Of a stretch of 64,000 nt of DNA, positions 12,295 to 61,828 are shown in pieces. Both the position numbers and the translations under genes were made by a program. Source of the stretch: an uncultured Clostridia bacterium. GTDB lineage: Bacteria; Bacillota; Clostridia; Christensenellales; Borkfalkiaceae. Within the stretch, counting starts at the first letter, position 1. Every line of letters starts with the position of its first letter. The stretch is taken from the NCBI GenBank assembly GCA_947625605.1, contig CANQOY010000005.1, positions 3,206 to 67,205 of the forward strand. Reading direction: 5' to 3'. The notes under the pieces are model-generated. The model was given only the letters and a program-made list of their open reading frames with translations, had not been told where the DNA came from and did no database searches.

Positions 12295-12530
12295 AGGGGG
12301 AGACCGCTCTTGTCATTCCGAATGAAGAGCGCCACCCCTTCCGTCACTCGCGCTGCTCGTGCCACCCACCCCTCAATGGGTGGGCAAGGAAAGACCGATT
12401 CTCGGCGCACCCTTGAGGGGGAGCTCCGCCGCAGGCGGTGAGGGGGTGTCATCCCAAATGAAGAGTGCCACCCCTTCCGTCACTCGCGTTGCTCGTGCCA
12501 CCCACCCCTCAAGGGGTGGGCAAGGGAACC
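12293..12530. repeat. two tandem empty units of the arm-pair repeat
   Basis: Unit 1 is 12311-12390 (left arm truncated). Unit 2 is 12404-12527 and has the same arms as the DUF559 element joined by a 14-nt linker. Confidence 0.8.
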
Positions 12531-17422: not shown

Positions 17423-20035
17423 TTATTCCTGCGTTTTCGGAGGCTCATCCTCGGACATGGTGGCCTCGTTTTTGCTCTCCGCCTCATCGGGAGCACCCGC
17501 AAGTTCCTCGGGGGAGAGGTCTGCGGCGGTCTCTTCGGGAGCGGCGACCTCGGCCTCTTCGTCCTTCTCGGTGACGGCGACCGTCGCCACCGTGCCCTCG
17601 CGCACATTCATGAGACGCACCCCGCGGGAGGCCCTGCCGATGCGGGAGATGGCCTCGACGTGCATGCGGATGACGATGCCCGCGCTCGTCACGAGCATGG
17701 CGTCGTTCGTGTTGTCGGCCAGCTTCATGCACACGAGCGCGCCCGTCTTTTCGTTGAACGTGCCCGCCTTGATGCCCTTTGCCCCGCGCGCGGTGAGGCG
17801 GTATTCCGCGGGATCGGAGCGCTTGCCGTACCCCCTTTCGGTGACGGTGAGGATATCGTACCCCTCTTTGAGGACGAGCATGTCCACGACCGTGTCGCCC
17901 TCGGCGAGGTTGATGCCGCGCACGCCCATGGTGTCTCTGCCCATGGGGCGCACGTCCGTCTCATGGAAGCGGACGCACTTGCCGAAGCGCGAGGCAATGA
18001 CGATCTGGTCCTCGCCGCCCGCGAACTGCACCGAGATGAGCTCGTCGCCCTCCGTGATCTTGATGGCGATCTTTCCGTTCTTCATGATGCGCTCGAACTC
18101 GCTCGTCGCCGTCTTCTTGACGAGGCCGTTCTTCGTCGCCATGACGAGGTACCCCGTGCCGTTTTCCAGAACGGGCAAAAACGCTGCGATCTTCTCCCCC
18201 GCCGCCAGCTGGATGAGGTTGACCATCGCGCGGCCCCGCGCCTGCCTGTTGGCCTCGGGGATCATGTAGCCTTTGAGGGAATACACCTTGCCGAAGTTGG
18301 AGAAGAAGAGGATGTTGTGGTGCGTGGAACAGACGAACATCTGCTCGACGAAGTCCTCATCCTTGGGCTTGTGGCCCGTGATCCCCACGCCGCCGCGGTG
18401 CTGGGCCCTGTACTCCGCAAGCGGATAGCGCTTGACGTACCCGCCGTGCGTCATCGAAATGACGACGTCCTCCTCGTCGATGAGGTCTTCGTCTTCGATG
18501 TCGCCGTAATCCACGGAGACCTCCGTCCGCCGCTCGGAGGGATACTTCGCCTTGATGGCGATGAGGTCGTCGCGGATGATCTGCATCACGCGGCTCTCGT
18601 TGGCGAGAATGTCTTTGAGGTCCGCGATGGCCGCTTCGAGCGCTTCGAGTTCCTCCCTGAGCTTTTCCACTTCGAGAGAGGTGAGCCGCTGCAAGCGCAT
18701 TTCGAGGATGGCGTTGGCCTGCTTCTCGGAGAGTTCGAAGGAGGCGGTCAGCTTGTCGTTGGCGTCGTTCTTGTCCCGCGATTCCTTGATGATGCGGATG
18801 ACTTCGTCGATATTGGCGAGGGCGAGGACGAGCCCCGCGACGATGTGCGCGCGCTCCTCCGTCTTGCCGAGGTCGTACCGCGTGCGGCGGACGATGACTT
18901 CTTTCTGATGTTCGAGATAGTAGTAGAGGATGTCGCGGATGGTCAAATACCGCGGTTCGGTGCCGTTCTCGACGAGGGCGAGGAGGATGATGCCGTCCGA
19001 AACCTGCAAATTGGAGTGCTTGTAGAGGGTGTTCAGAACGACCTGCGCGTTTGCGTCCTTCTTGCATTCGATGACGATGCGCAGCCCCTCTCTGCCCGAT
19101 TCGTCGCGGATATCCGAGATACCTTCGATGCGTTTATCCTTGACCATGTCCGCGATCTGGATGATGAGTTGCGCCTTGTTGACCTGATAGGGGATCTCCG
19201 TGACGACGATGCGGGAGCGCGCGTTTGCGCCCGTGCCGTGCTCTTCGATCTCGCACTTGGAGCGGATGACGATGTTGCCCTGCCCCGTGCGGTACGCCTT
19301 GCGGATGCCGCTGCGGCCCATGATGACGCCCCCCGTGGGGAAGTCGGGCGCGGGAATGTACTCCATGAGTTCGTCTACGGTGATCTCGGGATTGTCGATC
19401 ATGGCGACCGTGCCGTCGATGACCTCGGCGAGGTTGTGGGGCGGGATATTCGTCGCCATGCCCACGGCGATGCCGTCCGACCCGTTGACGAGCAGGTTGG
19501 GGAAGCGGGCGGGGAGCACCGCAGGCTCCATCTCGATCCCGTCGAAGTTGGGGAAGAAATCCACCGTCTCCTTGTCGAGGTCGCGGAGCATTTCGGCGGC
19601 GAGCTTTGTGAGGCGCGCCTCGGTGTAACGCATGGCCGCGGGCGGATCTCCGTCCACCGAGCCGAAGTTGCCGTGGCCGTCTACGAGCGGGAAGTTGATG
19701 GAAAAGTCCTGCGCCAGACGGACGAGCGCGTCGTAGACCGAGCTGTCTCCGTGCGGATGGAACTTACCCATGACGTCGCCGACGATACGGGCGCACTTGC
19801 GGTAGGCCTTGTCGTTGTAGAGGCCCATCTCGTGCATGGCGTAGAGGATGCGCCGGTGGACGGGCTTCAAGCCGTCGCGCACGTCGGGGATGGCGCGGGA
19901 CTTGTTGACCGCCATCGCATAGGCGATGAAGGAACGCTTCAATTCGTCGTTGACCTCTACATCGAGGATCTTCGTCATTTCCAGCGTCTTTTTGAATTCT
20001 TCGGTGAGCTCGGGTGATGTTTCTCTCTTTGCCAT
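17423..20035 (-). CDS. gyrA: DNA gyrase subunit A
   Basis: 870 aa, active-site region [11 protein letters not shown]-terminal beta-pinwheel repeats and acidic tail. Confidence 0.97.
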
Positions 20036-20069: not shown

Positions 20070-20540
20070 GGCGCCCCCTTGAGGGGGAGCTGTCTGCCCC
20101 GCAGACTGAGGGGGTGTTATTCCAATTCTAAATAATACAAGATCCTTTTCTTTACCTGTTCATAGTTGAATGCAACATCATAGTTCGATATCCTATAAAC
20201 AGAAATGCCGCGCTCTTTCAAAAAAGCATCGCGCCGAACATCGTATCGTTCCCCGTCCTCCTCAAAGTGCTGCGATCCGTCCAATTCAAGCGCAAGATTT
20301 TTTTGGGGACAATAGAAATCGACGACATAACAACCAAGCGCCTTTTGCCGCACGAACTTCACGGGAAGTTTGCGCAGAAATGTGTACCACAATTTCCGCT
20401 CTTCCTTTGTCATTGATTTTCGCAACGCTCGGGCGTTTTTGGTCAATTTCGGATTATATAAGTCGTTCATTTCTATGAGAACACCCCTTCCGTCGCGGCT
20501 TCGCCGCGCCACCCACCCCTCAAGGGGTGGGCAAGGGAGC
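20070..20540 (-). mobile_element. nested-palindrome repeat element carrying the DUF559 ORF (filled copy)
   Basis: Left arm 20070-20123 and right arm 20481-20540 match the adjacent arms at 12404-12527 and 39885-40104. The ORF occupies the junction. Confidence 0.5.
20117..20470 (-). CDS. DUF559 endonuclease-domain protein (Vsr-like fold), 117 aa
   Basis: NARALRKSMTKEERKLWYFLRK...VVDFYCPQKNLALELDGSQH...D..RD..L...G is the typical DUF559 pattern. The gene is visibly AT-richer than its flanks. ATG 20470. The stop lies inside the repeat arm. Confidence 0.8.
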   Translation of the reverse strand: MNDLYNPKLTKNARALRKSMTKEERKLWYTFLRKLPVKFVRQKALGCYVVDFYCPQKNLALELDGSQHFEEDGERYDVRRDAFLKERGISVYRISNYDVAFNYEQVKKRILYYLELE

Positions 20541-20561: not shown

Positions 20562-22475
20562 TCAGATATCCAGATCGGTCACCAGCGTGGCGTTCTCTTC
20601 GATGAACTGCCTGCGGAGGGCGGGGTTTTCTCCCATGAGCACGGAGAACATCTTGTCCGCCTCCACCGCGTCCTCCATCGACACCTTGATCAGCGTGCGC
20701 GTGGCAGGGTTCATCGTCGTGTCCCAGAGCTGTTCGGTGCTCATCTCGCCCAGACCCTTATAGCGCTGGTACTCCACCTTGTTGTTGTTCGCCGCGTCGA
20801 ACAGCGTCTTTTCCTCCTCGGAATAGAGGTACACGTCCTCCTTGCCCTTGACGCTCGCCTTATAGAGCGGCGGCTTGGCGGAATAGACATGCCCGTGCTC
20901 GATGAGCGGCCGCATGTAGCGGAAGAGGAAGGTGAGGAGCAGAATGCGGATGTGCGCGCCGTCCACATCGGCATCCGTCATGGAGATGATCCTGTCGTAG
21001 CGGAGCTTGCTCTCGTCGAAGTCGTCGAGGATCCCGCAGCCGAAGGCGGTGATCATCGCCTTGATCTCGGCGTTTTCGAGGGCGCGGTTGAGGCGCACCT
21101 TCTCCACGTTGAGGATCTTGCCGCGGAGGGGAAGAATGGCCTGAAAGCGCCTGTCTCTGCCCTGCTTCGCGGTGCCCCCTGCGGAGTCGCCCTCGACAAT
21201 GTAGATCTCGCACAGTTCGGGGCGCTTGTCCGAGCAGTCCGCAAGTTTCCCGGGGAGCGTCGTGGATTCGAGCACGCCCTTCCTGCGCGTGAGTTCGCGG
21301 GCGTTGCGGGCGGCGTCCCGCGCCTTCTGGGCCGTAATACAGCGCAAAACCAGCTCCCGCGCCTCGGAGGGATGCTCTTCGAGGTAGGTGCCGAACTTCT
21401 CCGCCACCGCCTTGGAAACGAATGGACGGATGAAGGAGTTGTTGAGTTTATCCTTGGTCTGCGATTCAAACTGCGCGTTTTCGAGTTTGACGGAGACCAC
21501 GGCCGTGATGCCCTCGCGCACGTCCTCGCCCGAGAGCTTGTCGCTCTCTTTGAGGATGTTCAGCTTCCTGCCCGCGTCGTTGATGACCTTGGTGAGGGCG
21601 AGTTTGAGGCCCTCGACGTGCGTCCCGCCGTCGATGGTGTTCACGTTGTTGGCATACGAGTAGATGACCTCGTTGTAGCTGTCGTTGTATTGCAGGGCGA
21701 TCTCGCAGACGGTGGTATCCTCCTGCGCCTCGAAGTACAGGGGCACCGAGAAGAGCTGCTCCTGCCCGCGGTTGAGCTCCTCCACGAGTTCGCGGATGCC
21801 GCCCTCGTAGAAGAAGCAATCCGACCTCTCATGGCCCTCGCGCCTGTCGGTGAGCGTAATGGTGAGGCCCTTGTTGAGGAAGGCGAGCTCTTTGAGGCGG
21901 ATTTTGAGCGTCTCATAGCGGAACACGATGGTCTCGAAGATCTCCGCGTCGGGATAGAACGTGACCTTGGTGCCCGTGGCAGAAGTGTCTCCGACGATCT
22001 GCAACGCCCTCTGCGGCACGCCGCGGTTGTAGACCTGTTTGTAGACGTGGCCGTTCTGGTAGACCTCGACTTCGAGCCACTCCGAGAGCGCGTTGACCGC
22101 CTTCACGCCCACGCCGTGCAGACCCGAGGAGACCTTGTAGCCGGAATCTCCGCCGAACTTGCCGCCCGCGTTGACCTTGGTAAAGACGACTTCCACCGTC
22201 GAGATGCCCTCCTTGGGGTGGATCTCGGTGGGGATCCCGCGGCCGTTATCCACGACGGTGCAGGAGCCGTCTGCGTTGACGGTGACGTCCACGCGGTCGC
22301 AGTAGCCCGCGAGCGCTTCGTCGATGGAGTTGTCAACGACCTCGTTGACGAGGTGATGGAGCCCCTTCTCGTCCGTGGAACTGATATACATCCCCGGGCG
22401 CTTGCGGATGTGTTCCAACCCGTCGAGGACCTGAATTTGTTCCGCACCGTATGCTGCTTCTACTTTTTCCGGCAT
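20562..22475 (-). CDS. gyrB: DNA gyrase subunit B
   Basis: GHKL ATPase motif GLHHLVNEVVDNSIDEA, TOPRIM EIYIVEGDSAGG, PLRGKILNVEK. ATG 22475 with SD GGAAGGAGC. Confidence 0.97.
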   Translation of the reverse strand: MPEKVEAAYGAEQIQVLDGLEHIRKRPGMYISSTDEKGLHHLVNEVVDNSIDEALAGYCDRVDVTVNADGSCTVVDNGRGIPTEIHPKEGISTVEVVFTKVNAGGKFGGDSGYKVSSGLHGVGVKAVNALSEWLEVEVYQNGHVYKQVYNRGVPQRALQIVGDTSATGTKVTFYPDAEIFETIVFRYETLKIRLKELAFLNKGLTITLTDRREGHERSDCFFYEGGIRELVEELNRGQEQLFSVPLYFEAQEDTTVCEIALQYNDSYNEVIYSYANNVNTIDGGTHVEGLKLALTKVINDAGRKLNILKESDKLSGEDVREGITAVVSVKLENAQFESQTKDKLNNSFIRPFVSKAVAEKFGTYLEEHPSEARELVLRCITAQKARDAARNARELTRRKGVLESTTLPGKLADCSDKRPELCEIYIVEGDSAGGTAKQGRDRRFQAILPLRGKILNVEKVRLNRALENAEIKAMITAFGCGILDDFDESKLRYDRIISMTDADVDGAHIRILLLTFLFRYMRPLIEHGHVYSAKPPLYKASVKGKEDVYLYSEEEKTLFDAANNNKVEYQRYKGLGEMSTEQLWDTTMNPATRTLIKVSMEDAVEADKMFSVLMGENPALRRQFIEENATLVTDLDI

Positions 22476-22730
22476 ATCCTTGCTCCTTCCGAAGCGCACT
22501 CCTGCGCTCCGAACATAATTAACGATATAGTATTATATATACTAAATGCGCACGCGCACGCGCGCGAGACAAAATTATTATAGCACGAAAATTGCGCGTT
22601 GTAAACCCCCTGCGGAAACTTTTTCCTACAAAAAGATGAAAAAATGGGGCTCCCGCCCATAAATCGGGCGGGAGCCCCCACCGAAAAACCGCCTGCATGG
22701 CGGGATCTGCCGATACAAATTCCGGCGGCG

Positions 22731-39774: not shown

Positions 39775-39884
39775 TTGATTGTCTGAACGAAAACCACGGT
39801 CGTCGCGTGGTTCAAAAGAGGCTTTGCCGATGAACAGAAAAACAATAAAGATAAGTAGTGCAATGAGCGGGATGAATATTTCTT

Positions 39885-40219
39885 GGCGCCCCCTTTGAGG
39901 GAGGAGCGGTGCAATTCTGCTCAACAGTGCAGTGCACTGTGAGCTGCACCGCGACAGGAGGCGTGGCCTCGCCGACGGTGTTGCGGCGGTCCCTGCCGCC
40001 CAACCGGGTCGAGGCAAAGCCGAGACTGAGGGGGTGTCATTCCCACACCCCTTCCGTCACTCGCGTTGCTCGTGCCACCCACCCCTCAAGGGGTGGGCAA
40101 GGGGAGTCCGCGTCTCTCCGGTCGTTCCGCCCCGCTCGCTTTGTCTACGCTGTCATTCCGAGGGGCTTTGCCCCGAGAGATTCCCCTTAAACGAAGTCCG
40201 TCATCGACCAAGGGGATAC
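39885..40219. repeat. empty arm-pair repeat with 118-nt insert, followed by a TGTCATTCCG-type module
   Basis: Left arm 39885-39907, 118-nt insert, CTGAGGGGGTGTCATTCC 40026-40043, right arm 40044-40104, TGTCATTCCG...CCCCTTAAACGAAGTCCGTCATCGACCAAGGGGATAC 40151-40219. Confidence 0.8.
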
Positions 40220-40237
40220 TTGCCCGAAAATGGAATA

Positions 40238-45969: not shown

Positions 45970-46140
45970 TTTTTCCTCCGAAACGCCCTTGTGGTAGGCT
46001 AATAAATTATATTTGTATTTATTTTTTTTGTAAACTGTTTTTTTATGCGTTTCGCAAAAAACTTTCGGAAATGTAAAAAAATTTTGCCCCGCGGGGCATG
46101 TGGTATTTCATTTTCGGGTATAGCCCTCCTTGGCTGCCCC

Positions 46141-46368
46141 TGTCATACCGAGTCTGCGTAGCAGACGAGTGTATCCCCTTGGTCGATGAACGGACTTCGT
46201 TTAAGGGGATTCTCTCCTCCCTCGCAAGCTCGGTCGTACTTTGCCCTTGCGGGCTCGTGCCGCCCTTCGACAACGAAAAGAACGTGCGGGCGGGGCGGAA
46301 TGACAGCGTGAGAAAAAGTGGGCGGGGCGGAATGACAGCGTAGACAGGGCAGGTCAAGGGGCGCCAAG
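46141..46368. repeat. full-length TGTCATACCG...CGGAATGACA unit plus partial copies
   Basis: The 46141-46305 unit has inverted termini. A partial duplicate ends at 46337. The reverse-oriented GGCGCCCCTTGACC motif ends at 46368. Confidence 0.8.
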
Positions 46369-46422: not shown

Positions 46423-46430
46423 GGAATGGA

Positions 46431-48872
46431 TCATTCATTAGGGGTATCCGGCGTCTCGGGAGCGGGTTCCTCGGGAGCAGGTTCTTCGGGAGCGGGTTCC
46501 TCGGGAACGGGTTCTTCGGGAGCGGGTTCCTCGGGAGCAGGTTCTTCGGGAACAGGCTCTTCGGGAACGGGTTCTTCGGGAGCGGGTTCCTCGGGAGCGG
46601 GCTCTTCCGTGAGTTCCTCCTCGGGCGTGGGCTCGGGATCGACGGCATAGACGTCGATGTCCCTATCGTCCGTGGTGTCAACGTGCATGCGCTTCTCCTT
46701 GGGCGCCTTCTGCGCGTTCTGCCGCTTCTTGTGGAAGAAGTGGAGGACGAGGAGCCCTGCAAGACCGACCACCAGCACGCTTCCGATGACGATGAGTGCG
46801 ATCGCCCACGCGGGCAGGTGCGTCTCCTCCTCTTCGGGCGGGGTGTAGCGGGTGAGGAACGTGGACCGCCAATAGTCGTCCCATGCCTCGTTGTCCGCGT
46901 CGTCCCACGTACCGATCTTCGTGACGAAGAAGGACTGCGTTCTGAACGAGGCGTCTCCCTCCTTGAAGTCGGTCTCTTCGAAGAGCTTCACCTCGTCGTA
47001 GGTGTATCCTTTCCCCTCGACGTATGCCGCAAAGGCCTCGCGGTCCTTTTCTTCATAGGGATTTTCGAGATCGGCGTCCTCCTTGATGGCGTCCTCATAT
47101 TCGCGCACGTTCTCGTTGACCAGATCCGCGTTGCCCGTGTAGAAGTAGCACTCGATGGCTTCGGCGAGGATGTCGTTGACGTCCGACCGGATGCGGCTGA
47201 GAAGCGCCTCGTCCCGGTCGGAGACGATATCCACGATCTCATCGTACAGATCGTTGCGCGCGGCGAGCTCGACGTTGTCCATGAGGCCATTCTCGTCTTT
47301 GAGGTTGATCGTGCTCACATAGTTGAAGGAGTTGCCGCCGTACGTCTTGCCGTCCGCAAAGAAGAGGACGTTGTCGACGATCTCGACGTCGTACCAACCG
47401 CTCGTATGCACCGCTTCGAGAATGCGCACGGGGACATAGTAATCGTTGTGATCCTCGGGATGCGTGAGGTTGCTGTAATCGTCCTTTCCGGTCCCGAGCT
47501 TATCGGTGACCCCGTTGTACACCGCGCGGTTGATGGAGGAACCGCCCGAGACGGAATTTGCATAATACAGATAGTGGTAGCCTTCCGCATCCGACTCGTT
47601 GTCGATGCCGATGATCTTGGGCGAGCTGGCCGTGCGGACGATCGTGGTCTCTGCGCCGTCTTCCACGTCAACGCGGATGAGGTTGGAGCCGTCCGCATAG
47701 ATGTAGTGGTGCTTGCCGCCCTCCCGATAGAAGAAGGCGTCGGTCACCGAGGAGGAAGCCGCGTCGGAAGCGATGACGTCGAACGATTCGGCCTCGCTGT
47801 CGTTTGCGGCGATGGTATCCCAGCCGGAGGCAAGGTCGGTCTCTTCGAGGAAGTAGAGCGTGCCGCTCGCGCCGACGACGCCGGGAGGCGCCGAAACGGG
47901 CTTACGGGTGAAGTAAAGGCCGCCGTTGTCGTACGTCTTTAAGCTGTAAATGTAGCCGACGGGATCTCCGGGCACCGTCTCGCTGTGATTGAATTGGCTG
48001 TAATTGTCGCGGAAGTCGTTCGCCCCGACGCCGTCGAGCACGAGCTCCCCGAAGTTGTGATAGGGCTCTTCCCCGTCGTTGTTCTCGTCCAGCCACGCCT
48101 GATCCCATTCGTAGTCGTAGGGAGCCTCCGTGGCGTCCGCGCGGACGCGGTAGATCTGGTTATAGGAGAGGTCTGCGCCGTAGTCGCTGTCCGGACGCAC
48201 CCGCACGCCCATCGTGTAGTACAAATAGGGCTCTCCCTTTTCGGAGGCGTGGAACTGATATTCCGAGGCCTCGCGCACGAGCAGAACGTCCTCCCCCGTC
48301 TCCGTGTTAAAGGAGTGGATGTCGAAAGCGGACGACCCCTCCACATAGAGCACATACACCACGCCGTTCTCCTCCACGAAGCGGTACGGCGTCGTATTCG
48401 TTTCGAGGCGGAAGTGGTGGCGGATGTCCGTCCCGTCGAGCTTGGCGCTCTTGAAGTCCAGCCAGCTGTTTTCCACCACGCCCGAGGTGTTGCGCACGTT
48501 GGTGGGCGTTGCGAAGTACACCCTGCCGCCATAGACGAAGATGCCCGCCTCGTGATCGCCTGCGACCATCAGGGAGGGGATGACCGTCTCGGCGCTGTTG
48601 ACGCCCGCTTCGACGTCCGCCTTGCGGATGCGCTGCAACGCACCCTTGACGGGAGCCCCGTAGGCGTTGTCCGCATCGCTGGTCTCAACGCCGTTGATGA
48701 AGTAGTAATAATCCCCCACGCCGACGACAAAGCCGCCGTTGGACTCCGCCGCCCCTTCGGGAATGCCGGCAGGCGTCTTGAAATCGCTGCCGCACGCCGC
48801 GATGGAGACGATCCCGAGGGAAAGCGTCGCGGCAGTCGCCAAAGCCAAAATTTTCTTTGTAGATTTACGCAT
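46431..48872 (-). CDS. large surface lipoprotein with C-terminal TM anchor and PEEPx-repeat tail
   Basis: Lipobox SIAAC after the signal peptide, long beta-rich ectodomain, TM WAIALIVIGSVLVVGLAGLLVL, tail (PEEPA/PEEPV)x10. SD GGAAGGA. Confidence 0.7.
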   Translation of the reverse strand: MRKSTKKILALATAATLSLGIVSIAACGSDFKTPAGIPEGAAESNGGFVVGVGDYYYFINGVETSDADNAYGAPVKGALQRIRKADVEAGVNSAETVIPSLMVAGDHEAGIFVYGGRVYFATPTNVRNTSGVVENSWLDFKSAKLDGTDIRHHFRLETNTTPYRFVEENGVVYVLYVEGSSAFDIHSFNTETGEDVLLVREASEYQFHASEKGEPYLYYTMGVRVRPDSDYGADLSYNQIYRVRADATEAPYDYEWDQAWLDENNDGEEPYHNFGELVLDGVGANDFRDNYSQFNHSETVPGDPVGYIYSLKTYDNGGLYFTRKPVSAPPGVVGASGTLYFLEETDLASGWDTIAANDSEAESFDVIASDAASSSVTDAFFYREGGKHHYIYADGSNLIRVDVEDGAETTIVRTASSPKIIGIDNESDAEGYHYLYYANSVSGGSSINRAVYNGVTDKLGTGKDDYSNLTHPEDHNDYYVPVRILEAVHTSGWYDVEIVDNVLFFADGKTYGGNSFNYVSTINLKDENGLMDNVELAARNDLYDEIVDIVSDRDEALLSRIRSDVNDILAEAIECYFYTGNADLVNENVREYEDAIKEDADLENPYEEKDREAFAAYVEGKGYTYDEVKLFEETDFKEGDASFRTQSFFVTKIGTWDDADNEAWDDYWRSTFLTRYTPPEEEETHLPAWAIALIVIGSVLVVGLAGLLVLHFFHKKRQNAQKAPKEKRMHVDTTDDRDIDVYAVDPEPTPEEELTEEPAPEEPAPEEPVPEEPVPEEPAPEEPAPEEPVPEEPAPEEPAPEEPAPETPDTPNE
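46455..46615 (-). repeat. in-frame 15-nt tandem repeat encoding (PEEPA/PEEPV)n
   Basis: Alternating GGGAGCGGGTTCCTC / GGGAGCAGGTTCTTC units inside the 3' end of the lipoprotein gene. Confidence 0.85.
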
Positions 48873-51057: not shown

Positions 51058-51836
51058 CCCCTTTCGCGCTGCGCGACCCAATTCGCCACGCCACGCACGC
51101 TTCCTGTCTTTGAGAACATACAAACTTCGCGGGCGACACGGCTTTGAGATGCACACTCTAACCCCTCGCAAATTTCTTTGCCCTCTTTCCTGTCCCCGCA
51201 GGGGGATTCTTTCTTGAAAGAAATTTGCGAAAGCTCAAAAATTTCCTTGCGCGAGCAGGGTCTCCCTGCGCTGCGCGACCCAATTTGCCACGCCATGCAC
51301 GCTTCCTGTCTTTGAGGTCATGCAGGCTCGCGGGCGACATGGCTTTGAGATGATATATCCTAACCCCTCGCAAATTTCTTTGCCCTCTTTCCTGCCCCGC
51401 AGGGAGCTCTTTCATGAAAGAAATTTGCGAAAGCTAAAAAATTTCTTGCGCGAGCAGGGTCCCCCTGCGCTGCGCGACCCAATTCGCCACGCCACGCACG
51501 CTTCCTGTCTTTGAGAACATGTATGCTCCGCGGGCGACATGGCTTTGAGTTGCGCACTCTAACCCCTCGCAAATTTCTTTGCCACTATTTTTGCCCCGCA
51601 GGGGGATTCTTTCTTGAAAGAAATTTGCGAAAGCTCAAAAATTTCCTTGCGCGAGCAGGGTTCCCCTGCGCTGCGCGACCCCATTTGCCACGCCACCGCA
51701 GGCTTCTTGTCTTTGAGAACATGTAGGCTCCGCGGGCGACACGGCTTTGAGATGATGAAACTTAACCCCTCGCAAATTTCTTTGCCCTCTTTCCTGCCCC
51801 GCAGGGAGCTCTTTCATGAAAGAAATTTGCGAAAAA
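51058..51836. repeat. tandem array, 3.8 copies of a ~200-bp unit in A-B-A-B order
   Basis: The anchor GCGCTGCGCGACCC recurs at 51066, 51268, 51467 and 51668 (spacings 202/199/201). Each unit has a 13-bp inverted repeat CGCAAATTTCTTT/AAAGAAATTTGCG. Confidence 0.9.
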
Positions 51837-56810: not shown

Positions 56811-57028
56811 GTTCCCCTTTTGACCCTGCCCGTCCCACGCTGTCATTCCGCCCCACCCGCACCGTCTCTCCTGTCATTCCGCCCCGCCCGCACGTTCTTT
56901 TCGTTGTCCAAGGGCGGCACGAGCCCGTAAGGGCGAAGTAAGGGCAACGCCCCGAGAGAATCCCCTTAAACGAAGTCCGTCATCGACCAGGGGGATACAC
57001 TCGCCCGTTCCACGGACTCGGTATGACA
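56811..57028. repeat. TGTCATTCCG...CGGTATGACA unit (reverse complement of the 46141 unit) plus partial copy
   Basis: 56872-57028 aligns with the reverse complement of 46141-46305. An extra TGTCATTCCG fragment lies at 56841-56871. Confidence 0.8.
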
Positions 57029-61435: not shown

Positions 61436-61581
61436 GATCCGATTCTCCTTGTCTCCCATTGTAGCAGAGCGCAAGGGGCGAACCTTGCCGAAGTTGGGCG
61501 AATGATGGAAAATTACAGAATAAACGCCGCTCTCTCAAAAGCGGCGCGAGGATGCGGACATGGTACCGGGGTAAGGTGTCC

Positions 61582-61809
61582 TGTCATACCGAGCACGCAG
61601 AGCGGGCGAGTGTATCCCCTTGGTCGTTGACGGACTTCGTTTCCCTGTCATACCGCCCCGCCCGCACGTTCTTATCGTTGTCCAAGGGCGGCACGAGCCC
61701 GCAAGGGCGAAGTATTCCGCGAAGCGGACGAGTGTATCCCCTTGGTCGATAACGGACTTCGTATCAGGGGATTCTCTCCTCCCTCGCAAGCTCGGTCGTC
61801 GGAATGACA
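61582..61809. repeat. rearranged/nested copy of the TGTCAT(A/T)CCG unit
   Basis: Termini at 61582-61591 and 61800-61809. The CGAGTGTATCCCCTTGGTCG block occurs twice (61607, 61729) around an inverted CCCCGCCCGCACG...GAAGTA block (61646-61714). Confidence 0.75.
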
Positions 61810-61828
61810 AGAGGATCGTGCGGCAGCT

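Follow-up and report, generated by a model that had tools for sequence, protein, structure and literature searches.

The BoxC/PIT/TMECO repeats of Escherichia coli have been known since the 1990s, and to our knowledge no origin, function or associated gene has been assigned to them; likewise, we know of no function for the DUF559/YcjD proteins or for NGO0050 (PDB 3HRL). The subject of this analysis is a 64,000-nt stretch of DNA from an uncultured Clostridia bacterium (GenBank assembly GCA_947625605.1, contig CANQOY010000005.1, positions 3,206 to 67,205 of the forward strand; hereafter the window), in which a DUF559 gene lies between gyrB and gyrA and is framed by two inverted arms that recur elsewhere without it. 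We consider this region, with a probability of roughly 55%, to be a resident copy of a nuclease-plus-repeat system, in which a DUF559 gene is kept together with its own dispersed arms much as RAYTs are with their REPINs, by a mechanism that we infer and set out below.

The published consensus of the E. coli repeats is CCCTCNCCC-N3-6-GGGNGAGGG-N3-GGGNGAGGG, with 23 copies in strain MG1655 that include five inverted A+B doublets (PMC4666352); mobility functions were "never" seen near these repeats and no associated gene was found (Holder et al. 2015, PMC4666352). Like them, the clostridial arms (named U, upstream, and D, downstream, in the orientation of the DUF559 gene) carry a C-block, a short loop (often TTGA), a complementary G-block and a second G-rich block that mirrors the G-block, and they are intergenic, present in tens of copies and often arranged as inverted doublets of two subtypes, A+B in E. 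coli and U+D here. Both are also tied to local genome variability, and one BoxC adjoins ycjD, the DUF559 gene of E. coli. The arms differ from BoxC in their cores (CCCACCCC/GGGGTGGG in place of CCCTCNCCC/GGGNGAGGG), in the second loop, which is 3 nt long in BoxC (1-6 nt in the published search) and a variable hairpin of 12-25 nt here, and in framing a nuclease gene.

In the system formed by REPINs (inverted doublets of repetitive extragenic palindromic, or REP, sequences) and RAYTs (REP-associated tyrosine transposases), a gene that is single-copy and for the most part passed on vertically has palindromic repeats of its own on either side (PMC3116915, PMC3337134, PMC5581495). These repeats are found across the genome both singly and as inverted doublets with a short spacer, and several cognate gene-repeat pairs may occur per clade. 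The arrangement of the repeats and the plurality of pairs have counterparts in the clostridial DNA, and single copy and vertical descent may have. The enzymes differ, however. The RAYT is an IS200/IS605-type Y1 HUH transposase, whereas the gene here encodes a PD-(D/E)xK nuclease of the Vsr fold, so that the cut-and-rejoin chemistry of RAYTs cannot apply; REPs also lack the mirror (triplex) rule that the arms follow. We regard RAYT/REPIN as the closest working analogy, one that fails on the enzyme, and BoxC/PIT as the closest sequence class, from which the arms differ in the second loop.

The DNA examined comprised the window and 8-kb loci from related genomes and metagenomes, which carry L numbers. 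The parts of the element and the two genes beside it are as follows.

20117 to 20470, minus strand: DUF559 gene (YcjD-like, Vsr-fold PD-(D/E)xK; PF04480 E = 6.5e-28, PDB 3HRL E = 3.7e-11)
20481 to 20540, minus strand: arm U, with its core at 20512-20531 and its third block at 20481-20491
20070 to 20123, minus strand: arm D, which begins directly after the stop codon (GGAATAA, then CACCCCCTCAG)
20562 to 22499, minus strand: gyrB, the context gene upstream of the element
17423 to 20035, minus strand: gyrA, the context gene downstream of the element

Read in gene orientation, the spacer runs from the gyrB stop through 21 nt, arm U, 10 nt, the open reading frame (ATG to TAA), arm D and 34 nt to the ATG of gyrA. 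An initial annotation of the window had described two arms around a 354-nt, AT-richer DUF559 reading frame that is co-oriented with gyrB and gyrA and whose stop codon lies inside the left arm. Its sequence strings and coordinates are all present in the window, and each of these points was borne out: the profile match identifies the family, all parts lie on the minus strand, D begins at the TAA (20117-20119), and the GC content of the gene is 0.43, compared with 0.61 in its surroundings. From the end of gyrB through both arms and the gene to the start of gyrA, two independent assemblies (L001 and L002) are 100% identical, and the element is therefore not an assembly artefact. A recombination break at the arm, which the low GyrA identity of L002 had raised as a candidate, was rejected, as the break actually lies inside gyrA on a low-coverage contig. 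On the minus strand from gyrB to gyrA no terminator-like site and no sigma-70-like promoter was found, which is consistent with read-through of gyrB transcription into gyrA across the element.

The gene encodes 117 amino acids, with its ATG at 20470. Its PF04480 match passes the gathering threshold (97.2 bits against a cut-off of 20.6) and covers profile positions 2-108 of 109, the only other Pfam match being a sub-threshold one to MTES_1575. The catalytic motif D51/E62/D64/H68 (D...ExDGxxH) is intact, and D51, E62, D64, G65 and H68 are invariant across an alignment of 18 sequences that includes E. coli YcjD. Profile and motif together thus place the protein among the DUF559-family nucleases, with nuclease activity predicted. 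It shares family, motif and a length of about 117 amino acids with YcjD and with NGO0050 of Neisseria gonorrhoeae; it is 42% identical to YcjD and scores 66.7 bits against the YcjD equivalog model NF007294, below the cut-off of 218, and as judged by this score it is a relative of YcjD, the closest named family, and not an equivalog. A Vsr very-short-patch repair endonuclease was considered and rejected, as the Pfam scan gave no Vsr match and the neighbours are gyrB and gyrA, with no methyltransferase. A PADLOC search with the gene gave only weak domain-level matches (DpdF, methyl-directed REase) and no defence system context. The gene-caller version of the product begins at Met34, and this 98-aa version gave an exact database match.

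In all six species that carry the gene between gyrB and gyrA, the GC content of its third codon positions (GC3) is 0.41-0.56, compared with 0.74-0.87 for gyrB. This low value has persisted without amelioration although synonymous sites are saturated between species, an observation for which we offer no explanation. The ratio of nonsynonymous to synonymous substitution rates (dN/dS) is 0.057 for the orthologues of L008 and L052, the closest pair (synonymous sites are saturated in all other pairs). Judged from this ratio and from the invariant catalytic columns, the gene is under purifying selection and functional.

The two arms, of about 55 nt each, are imperfect reverse complements of each other, and the inverted relationship proposed for them survives proper alignment. 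Along the minus strand, U consists of CCCTTG, the C-block CCCACCCC, the loop TTGA, the G-block GGGGTGGG, TG, the variable hairpin GCGCGGCGAAGCCGCGAC and a third, G-rich block, GGAAGGGGTGT at 20481-20491; in the gene-orientation layout it closes with CGGAAGGGGTGT after the hairpin. D consists of CACCCCCTCAG, the hairpin TCTGCGGGGCAGA, CAGCTCCCCC, the loop TCAA and GGGGGCGCC. Each arm thereby holds a hairpin of pyrimidine block, loop and purine block (CCCACCCC-TTGA-GGGGTGGG in U, CTCCCCC-TCAA-GGGGG in D), and the ends of the arm pair read YCTTGCCCACCCC...GGGGnnGCCRAGR, as terminal inverted repeats do. The third block of U doubles as a sequence like a Shine-Dalgarno (SD) site. The initial annotation had derived the SD of the gene from this arm; the block is indeed there, but its SD-like GGAAGGGG stands 13 nt from the ATG, which is rather far; orthologues and other lineages have this block at a distance of 3-7 nt.

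The first hairpin is invariant within the rabbit-gut clade to which the relatives of this genome belong, and the second is variable. Among 130 copies of U in related genomes, the second hairpin has 88 distinct sequences with a mean perfect stem of 6.1, compared with 3.0 when shuffled; in D there are 43 distinct sequences in 57 copies, with stems of 4.7 versus 2.9. Sequence thus varies while pairing is kept, and by this measure the arm hairpins covary, as had been suggested from the window's copies. Folded as single-stranded DNA, the window's U reaches -21.7 kcal/mol (z = -4.24), and z is -1.7 for its D and -4.6 and -5.2 for two arms from Butyrivibrio. In most lineages the third block of U has no complement within the arm and is instead a mirror image of the G-block. 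Such a mirror, with the pairs G*G, A*A and T*A, is what defines the BoxC/PIT/TMECO repeats. Over 79 DUF559 loci, the mirror match between the two is 0.82, compared with 0.71 for the shuffled and 0.72 for the direct control, and perfect mirror matches occur at 23 of the 79 loci versus 4 of 79 in controls (p = 9e-12 and 1e-8 for the mirror rule). About ten distinct covarying variants of the block are found among these loci. Examples of mirrored blocks are AAGGGAGG then GGAGGGAT, GGGGGAGG then GGTGGGGG, GGAGAAG then GATGAGG, and GGGGAAAG then GAAAGGGG. In single-stranded DNA, arms of this layout are predicted to be capable of hairpins and of an intrastrand purine-motif triplex. Rfam held no family for the whole window at gathering thresholds, for the spacer at E <= 5 or for five related loci, and on this search the arms are not a described RNA.

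Copies of the arms without the gene occur at two further places in the window, which holds 4 U and 3 D in total.

12404 to 12527, minus strand: gene-less doublet, with D at 12404-12448, a 20-nt spacer at 12449-12468 and U at 12469-12527
39885 to 40104, minus strand: gene-less doublet with abutting arms, U at 40044-40104 and D at 39885-40043
12333 to 12391, minus strand: extra single U with one core mismatch, followed by a spacer-like piece, GCGCTCTTCATTCGGAATGACA, at 12311-12332
39780 to 39884, minus strand: 3' remnant of a small membrane-protein gene, the place of whose 5' part is occupied by the repeat cluster

The right-arm core CCACCCACCCCTCAAGGGGTGGGCAAGG occurs four times (12362, 12498, 20509 and 40075, all on the plus strand; 0.00 expected in shuffles) and the left-arm core twice (12404 and 20070; 0.01 expected), with a degenerate, expanded third copy at 39885, while the junction motif TGAGGGGGTGTYATYCC is found at 12439, 20107 and 40027 (0.05 expected). 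The gene-less pairs described in the initial annotation are thus real, one joined by 14-20 nt and the other abutting at 40043/40044, where more than 100 nt are inserted in the hairpin region of D. Two relatives (L223 and L224, with glycyl-tRNA synthetase 88% identical) lack the repeats at the orthologue of the 39885-40104 site and have an intact small membrane gene there.

Other mosaic intergenic repeats, at 40119-40220, 46139-46340, 56840-57000 and 61580-61810, share the 9-mer TGTCATTCC / GGAATGACA, which has 8 copies against 0.47 expected and whose same few bases end the DUF559 gene and many doublet spacers. It may be a module boundary, a target or a gene-end remnant.

Exact matches to a 22-mer from U were found at at least 118 loci, with at least 28 species-level metagenome-assembled genomes (MAGs) or assemblies among the 80 loci listed; every listed match is in a MAG of rabbit-gut Clostridia, and the closest protein homologues likewise come from rabbit-gut MAGs labelled "uncultured Clostridia bacterium". 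Five other species (L003, L008/L079, L055, L107 and L052) also have DUF559 between gyrB and gyrA, with proteins 62-70% identical to that of the window and 64-87% identical among themselves, while GyrB is 91-99% identical among the six genomes. D begins at the stop codon in all six species and U precedes the gene in five, its copy in L008 being degenerate. In the clade DNA examined, the gene was found nowhere but in this spacer, and its occurrence at the same site in six species indicates that it is resident there and not a recent or active insertion. Of the overall picture first drawn for this region, the framed gene and the gene-less arm pairs thus stand, and a recent or active insertion is not supported.

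The arms, in contrast to the gene, are dispersed as U-spacer-D doublets and single arms. In the loci with the U core we counted 136 U and 51 strict D cores. About 29 U-x-D doublets are tight, with 69-86 nt from core to core, and 82 U stand alone; among the matches listed, the only filled copies are the DUF559 ones between gyrB and gyrA. The arms are thus intergenic, multi-copy and arranged as inverted doublets of two subtypes, as BoxC is, and occur as doublets plus singlets, as REPINs do. Their number also varies within the gyrB-gyrA spacer itself, which reads U-x-D-U-gene-D-U in L003 and U-x-D-U-x-D up to the contig end in L024, where the contig (L024 1-280) stops inside the array downstream of gyrB. 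The arms thus appear to break metagenome assemblies, so that copy numbers in MAGs are probably underestimated.

Short, AT-rich and variable spacers separate the arms of the doublets. Many of them open with TCATA and close, immediately ahead of CACCCCC, with GGAATGA, GGAATAA or GAACGA, as the ends of the gene region do, which is suggestive of an origin by internal deletion, with a match of only 7-11 nt. The gene-end remnant overlaps a separate hairpin repeat family of the GTCATTCCGAG type, and for this reason we do not use it as decisive evidence. No target-site duplication was visible at the 28 doublets inspected for one.

Presence/absence polymorphism among relatives, which the initial annotation had made a touchstone, exists. 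L087 has a spacer without DUF559, although its GyrB and that of L052, which bears the gene, share 99.5% identity, and the comparison points to loss or replacement; the distal part of D is kept beside gyrA, and other repeats take the place of the gene. Alignment of the spacers therefore yields a DUF559-free allele but not an uninterrupted one: a clean gyrB-gyrA allele was sought among the relatives and none was found, L087 being the sole DUF559-free spacer. One of the repeats in these genomes is a cross-species composite of about 250 nt, in which a long hairpin (CGCACGTTTCTTT...AAAGAAACGTGCG) is tipped by a U or U-like module and followed by a conserved, structured tail (..AAGCCGTAAGTATGCGGCAAATTGTGTGCGCTTATGGAAAAG..). 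One MAG carries it at least twice, including once in the DUF559-free gyrB-gyrA spacer, and Rfam has no match for it.

L087 6635-7024 and 400-800; L039 1436-1825; L093 7431-7820; L102 5349-5738; L125 3760-4149; L030 132-521: copies of the composite repeat

The association of DUF559 with inverted arms extends to other taxa. For 80 metagenomic DUF559 loci, the 160-nt upstream flank was aligned to the reverse complement of the downstream flank, with positions in the same contigs as controls. The median inverted-repeat score is 42.5, compared with 16 at control positions, and 72.5% of the loci surpass the 95th percentile of the controls, which 5% of control positions exceed by definition (Mann-Whitney p = 7.5e-26). 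DUF559 genes 51-56% identical to that of the window stand in other contexts in other taxa, with analogous arms that have lineage-specific cores: after valS (L130) and between pth and mfd (L134), framed by arms in both cases, and after mgtE in Butyrivibrio sp. VCD2006 (L138), where the arms form a 54-nt inverted repeat with compensatory changes. In L139 the gene lies 1.2 kb downstream of an Mntp-family (mntP-like) gene and upstream of a PALP-family gene, with a U-x-D doublet upstream and no arm seen downstream. Where the flanks could be classified, the order is U-gene-D at 21 loci and D-gene-U at 7; these counts cover the classifiable subset only, as the automatic typing is crude and failed on the window and on several clear cases.

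The rabbit-gut clade also has a second DUF559 subfamily (61-63% identical), which is situated in tandem arrays of a different arm type; one of its loci lies between cysS and an alaS-like gene; the MAG that holds L228 (CANQLW) also carries several type-1 U arms.

L228 2740-3700 and L225 2240-3614: second-subfamily arrays, with arm CTGTCCCCTnnGGGGAAAGT-hairpin-GAAAGGGGTT, a perfect mirror

As arm type differs by lineage and by gene subfamily, the arms appear to be cognate to their genes, and these comparisons have shown the association of DUF559 with arms to be strong, lineage-specific and general across the taxa sampled. In annotated homologues the C terminus often runs on into translated arm sequence, as in the tails "SPQGEG" and "PLEGK". 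The family is large (19,963 clusters at 50% identity and E <= 1e-3), and a phage origin is unsupported, with just 12 relatives in viral contigs, mostly at contig ends. A literature search on DUF559, ycjD, boxC and Vsr with MITEs (miniature inverted-repeat transposable elements) found no paper linking DUF559/YcjD to repeats.

A DUF559 gene and BoxC are also neighbours in E. coli. The product of ycjD (b1289) is a DUF559 protein. The gene is followed, 168 nt downstream and beyond a partial duplication of its own 3' end, by BoxC/TMECO no. 9 (1351204-1351239). The arrangement sapF-ycjD-BoxC-fabI is found in 3,346 of 5,426 complete E. coli genomes; in the remaining ones only 134 nt beside fabI match, with the break about 40 nt beyond BoxC, and the alternative allele is eefRABCD, without BoxC at the break. 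From this shared presence and absence we take ycjD and BoxC to travel as one indel cassette. The presence of ycjD in place of eef has been described, with at least two independent losses of eef inferred (PMC12817139). A perfect 17-nt palindrome in the 5' flank of ycjD ends in GAATGAGGTG, a sequence similar to the third block of the clostridial U.

L142 4030-4840 (E. coli K-12 1351029-1351839) and L243: ycjD cassette locus

In the nuclease-plus-repeat system that we favour, the nuclease would recognise and nick the folded arms when these are single-stranded or when supercoiling extrudes them. At the resulting breaks, arm units would be copied, moved or deleted by repair synthesis or gene conversion, and the same process might occasionally carry the whole cassette to a new intergenic site. 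PD-(D/E)xK nucleases have no strand-transfer chemistry and cannot rejoin DNA, and copying must then rely on host repair, which counts against the proposal. So do several other points. All of the evidence is association, from which an action of the nuclease on the arms could only be inferred. Most U copies are single arms, and about 20 sit within the composite repeat, so that other routes of spreading exist. The genome of L087 keeps intact arms elsewhere although its spacer has lost DUF559, and the window's own U mirrors only 6 of 8 positions (GGAAGGGG versus GGGTGGGG). Distances of DUF559 and GyrB agree only loosely (Pearson 0.61, Spearman 0.22), which leaves room for exchange at the site. That the gene is single-copy is not proven and holds for the window and the 8-kb loci examined, with one copy in the window and all copies in the loci with U cores between gyrB and gyrA in six species, where tree congruence is weak. 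In E. coli, the BoxC part of the query finds matches of BoxC length in all 5,426 genomes, including the 2,080 without the ycjD cassette, which speaks against a strict dependence.

The initial annotation had proposed either autonomous and non-autonomous copies of a MITE-like element or a homing-type selfish gene that targets the repeat. If this were a classical transposon with its MITEs, DUF559 would be the transposase and the gene-less doublets internally deleted copies mobilised in trans. Terminal inverted repeats of about 55 nt, short gene-less copies beside a gene-bearing one, spacers that keep pieces resembling gene ends (TCATA and GGAATGA or GAACGA) and may be deletion remnants, a cassette found in differing genomic contexts across taxa and the commoner U-gene-D order (21 versus 7) are all what such elements would show. 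We nevertheless judge this explanation unlikely. None of the 28 doublets inspected showed a target-site duplication, six species share the one filled copy found in a syntenic position, the arms enclose no second gene, and in some lineages the gene lies between doublets (D-gene-U) and not inside one. As the 117-aa product is a Vsr-fold nuclease without strand-transfer chemistry and not a transposase, the term autonomous element in the MITE sense does not apply. Homing would instead have DUF559 cut the gene-less pair or an uninterrupted spacer, with repair of the break copying the gene by using the arms as homology. Its clade does include a group I intron homing endonuclease (I-Bth0305I, PDB 3R3P; PMC3424549), its PHROGs domain matches go to homing endonuclease families, and a small, selfish-looking gene of atypical composition between essential genes, with low GC3 in all orthologues, is reminiscent of such enzymes. 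The weak agreement of the gene and GyrB trees would fit repeated replacement, and the ycjD cassette replaces eefRABCD at one site, reportedly at least twice (PMC12817139). Homing into the repeat was not seen, however. The unfilled copies number about 29 tight doublets and over 100 single arms, against one filled site per genome, conserved in the chromosome and unconnected with a phage or intron. With their variable spacers, the gene-less copies do not qualify as clean empty sites, in L087 other repeats have replaced the gene and left no precise empty allele, and the gene is rare in viral contigs (12 matches). We accordingly hold homing to be very improbable.

It is also conceivable, but improbable in our estimation, that no functional link exists at the DNA level, the arms being REP-like repeats or the gene's own untranslated-region structures (a ribosome-binding site held within a fold, a terminator or stabilising element, or 5'-3' pairing that limits translation of a toxic nuclease) which were dispersed by unrelated means. 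Most U copies are indeed remote from any DUF559 gene, and the genomes abound in other mosaic repeats, which crowd into the same spacers. In most lineages the SD is the third block of U, and in several the D hairpins are followed by T-runs. This explanation sits poorly with the 72.5% of DUF559 loci above the control percentile and with the difference of arm type by lineage and gene subfamily. The mirror rule, moreover, has no role in RNA pairing, purine-motif triplexes being reported not to form in RNA (PMC4666352), and a purely regulatory role leaves gene-less doublets with the same two arm subtypes unexplained.

Two further repeats in the window lie apart from the element: a 15-nt tandem repeat of about 14 units at 46426-46635, which reads EPAPE on the minus strand, and four copies of a unit of about 200 nt at 51066-51834.

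For annotation, DUF559 reading frames are often extended through the arms by gene callers, and the arms also break metagenome assemblies. More tentatively, and as a proposal that we think has the odds against it, YcjD-like DUF559 nucleases could be the missing enzymes behind BoxC/PIT-type repeats from Clostridia to E. coli; they would then form a second, mechanistically distinct class of nuclease-plus-repeat replicator beside RAYT/REPIN, working by structure-specific nicking of mirror-palindromic DNA and repair-mediated copying, without a transposase. A reproducible link between DUF559 and BoxC would give each of them a testable role, and it is approachable in cultured organisms, namely E. coli K-12, with ycjD and 23 BoxC copies, and Butyrivibrio sp. 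VCD2006. If the proposal is true, it would place a second enzyme class among the few persistent, vertically inherited repeat systems of bacteria.

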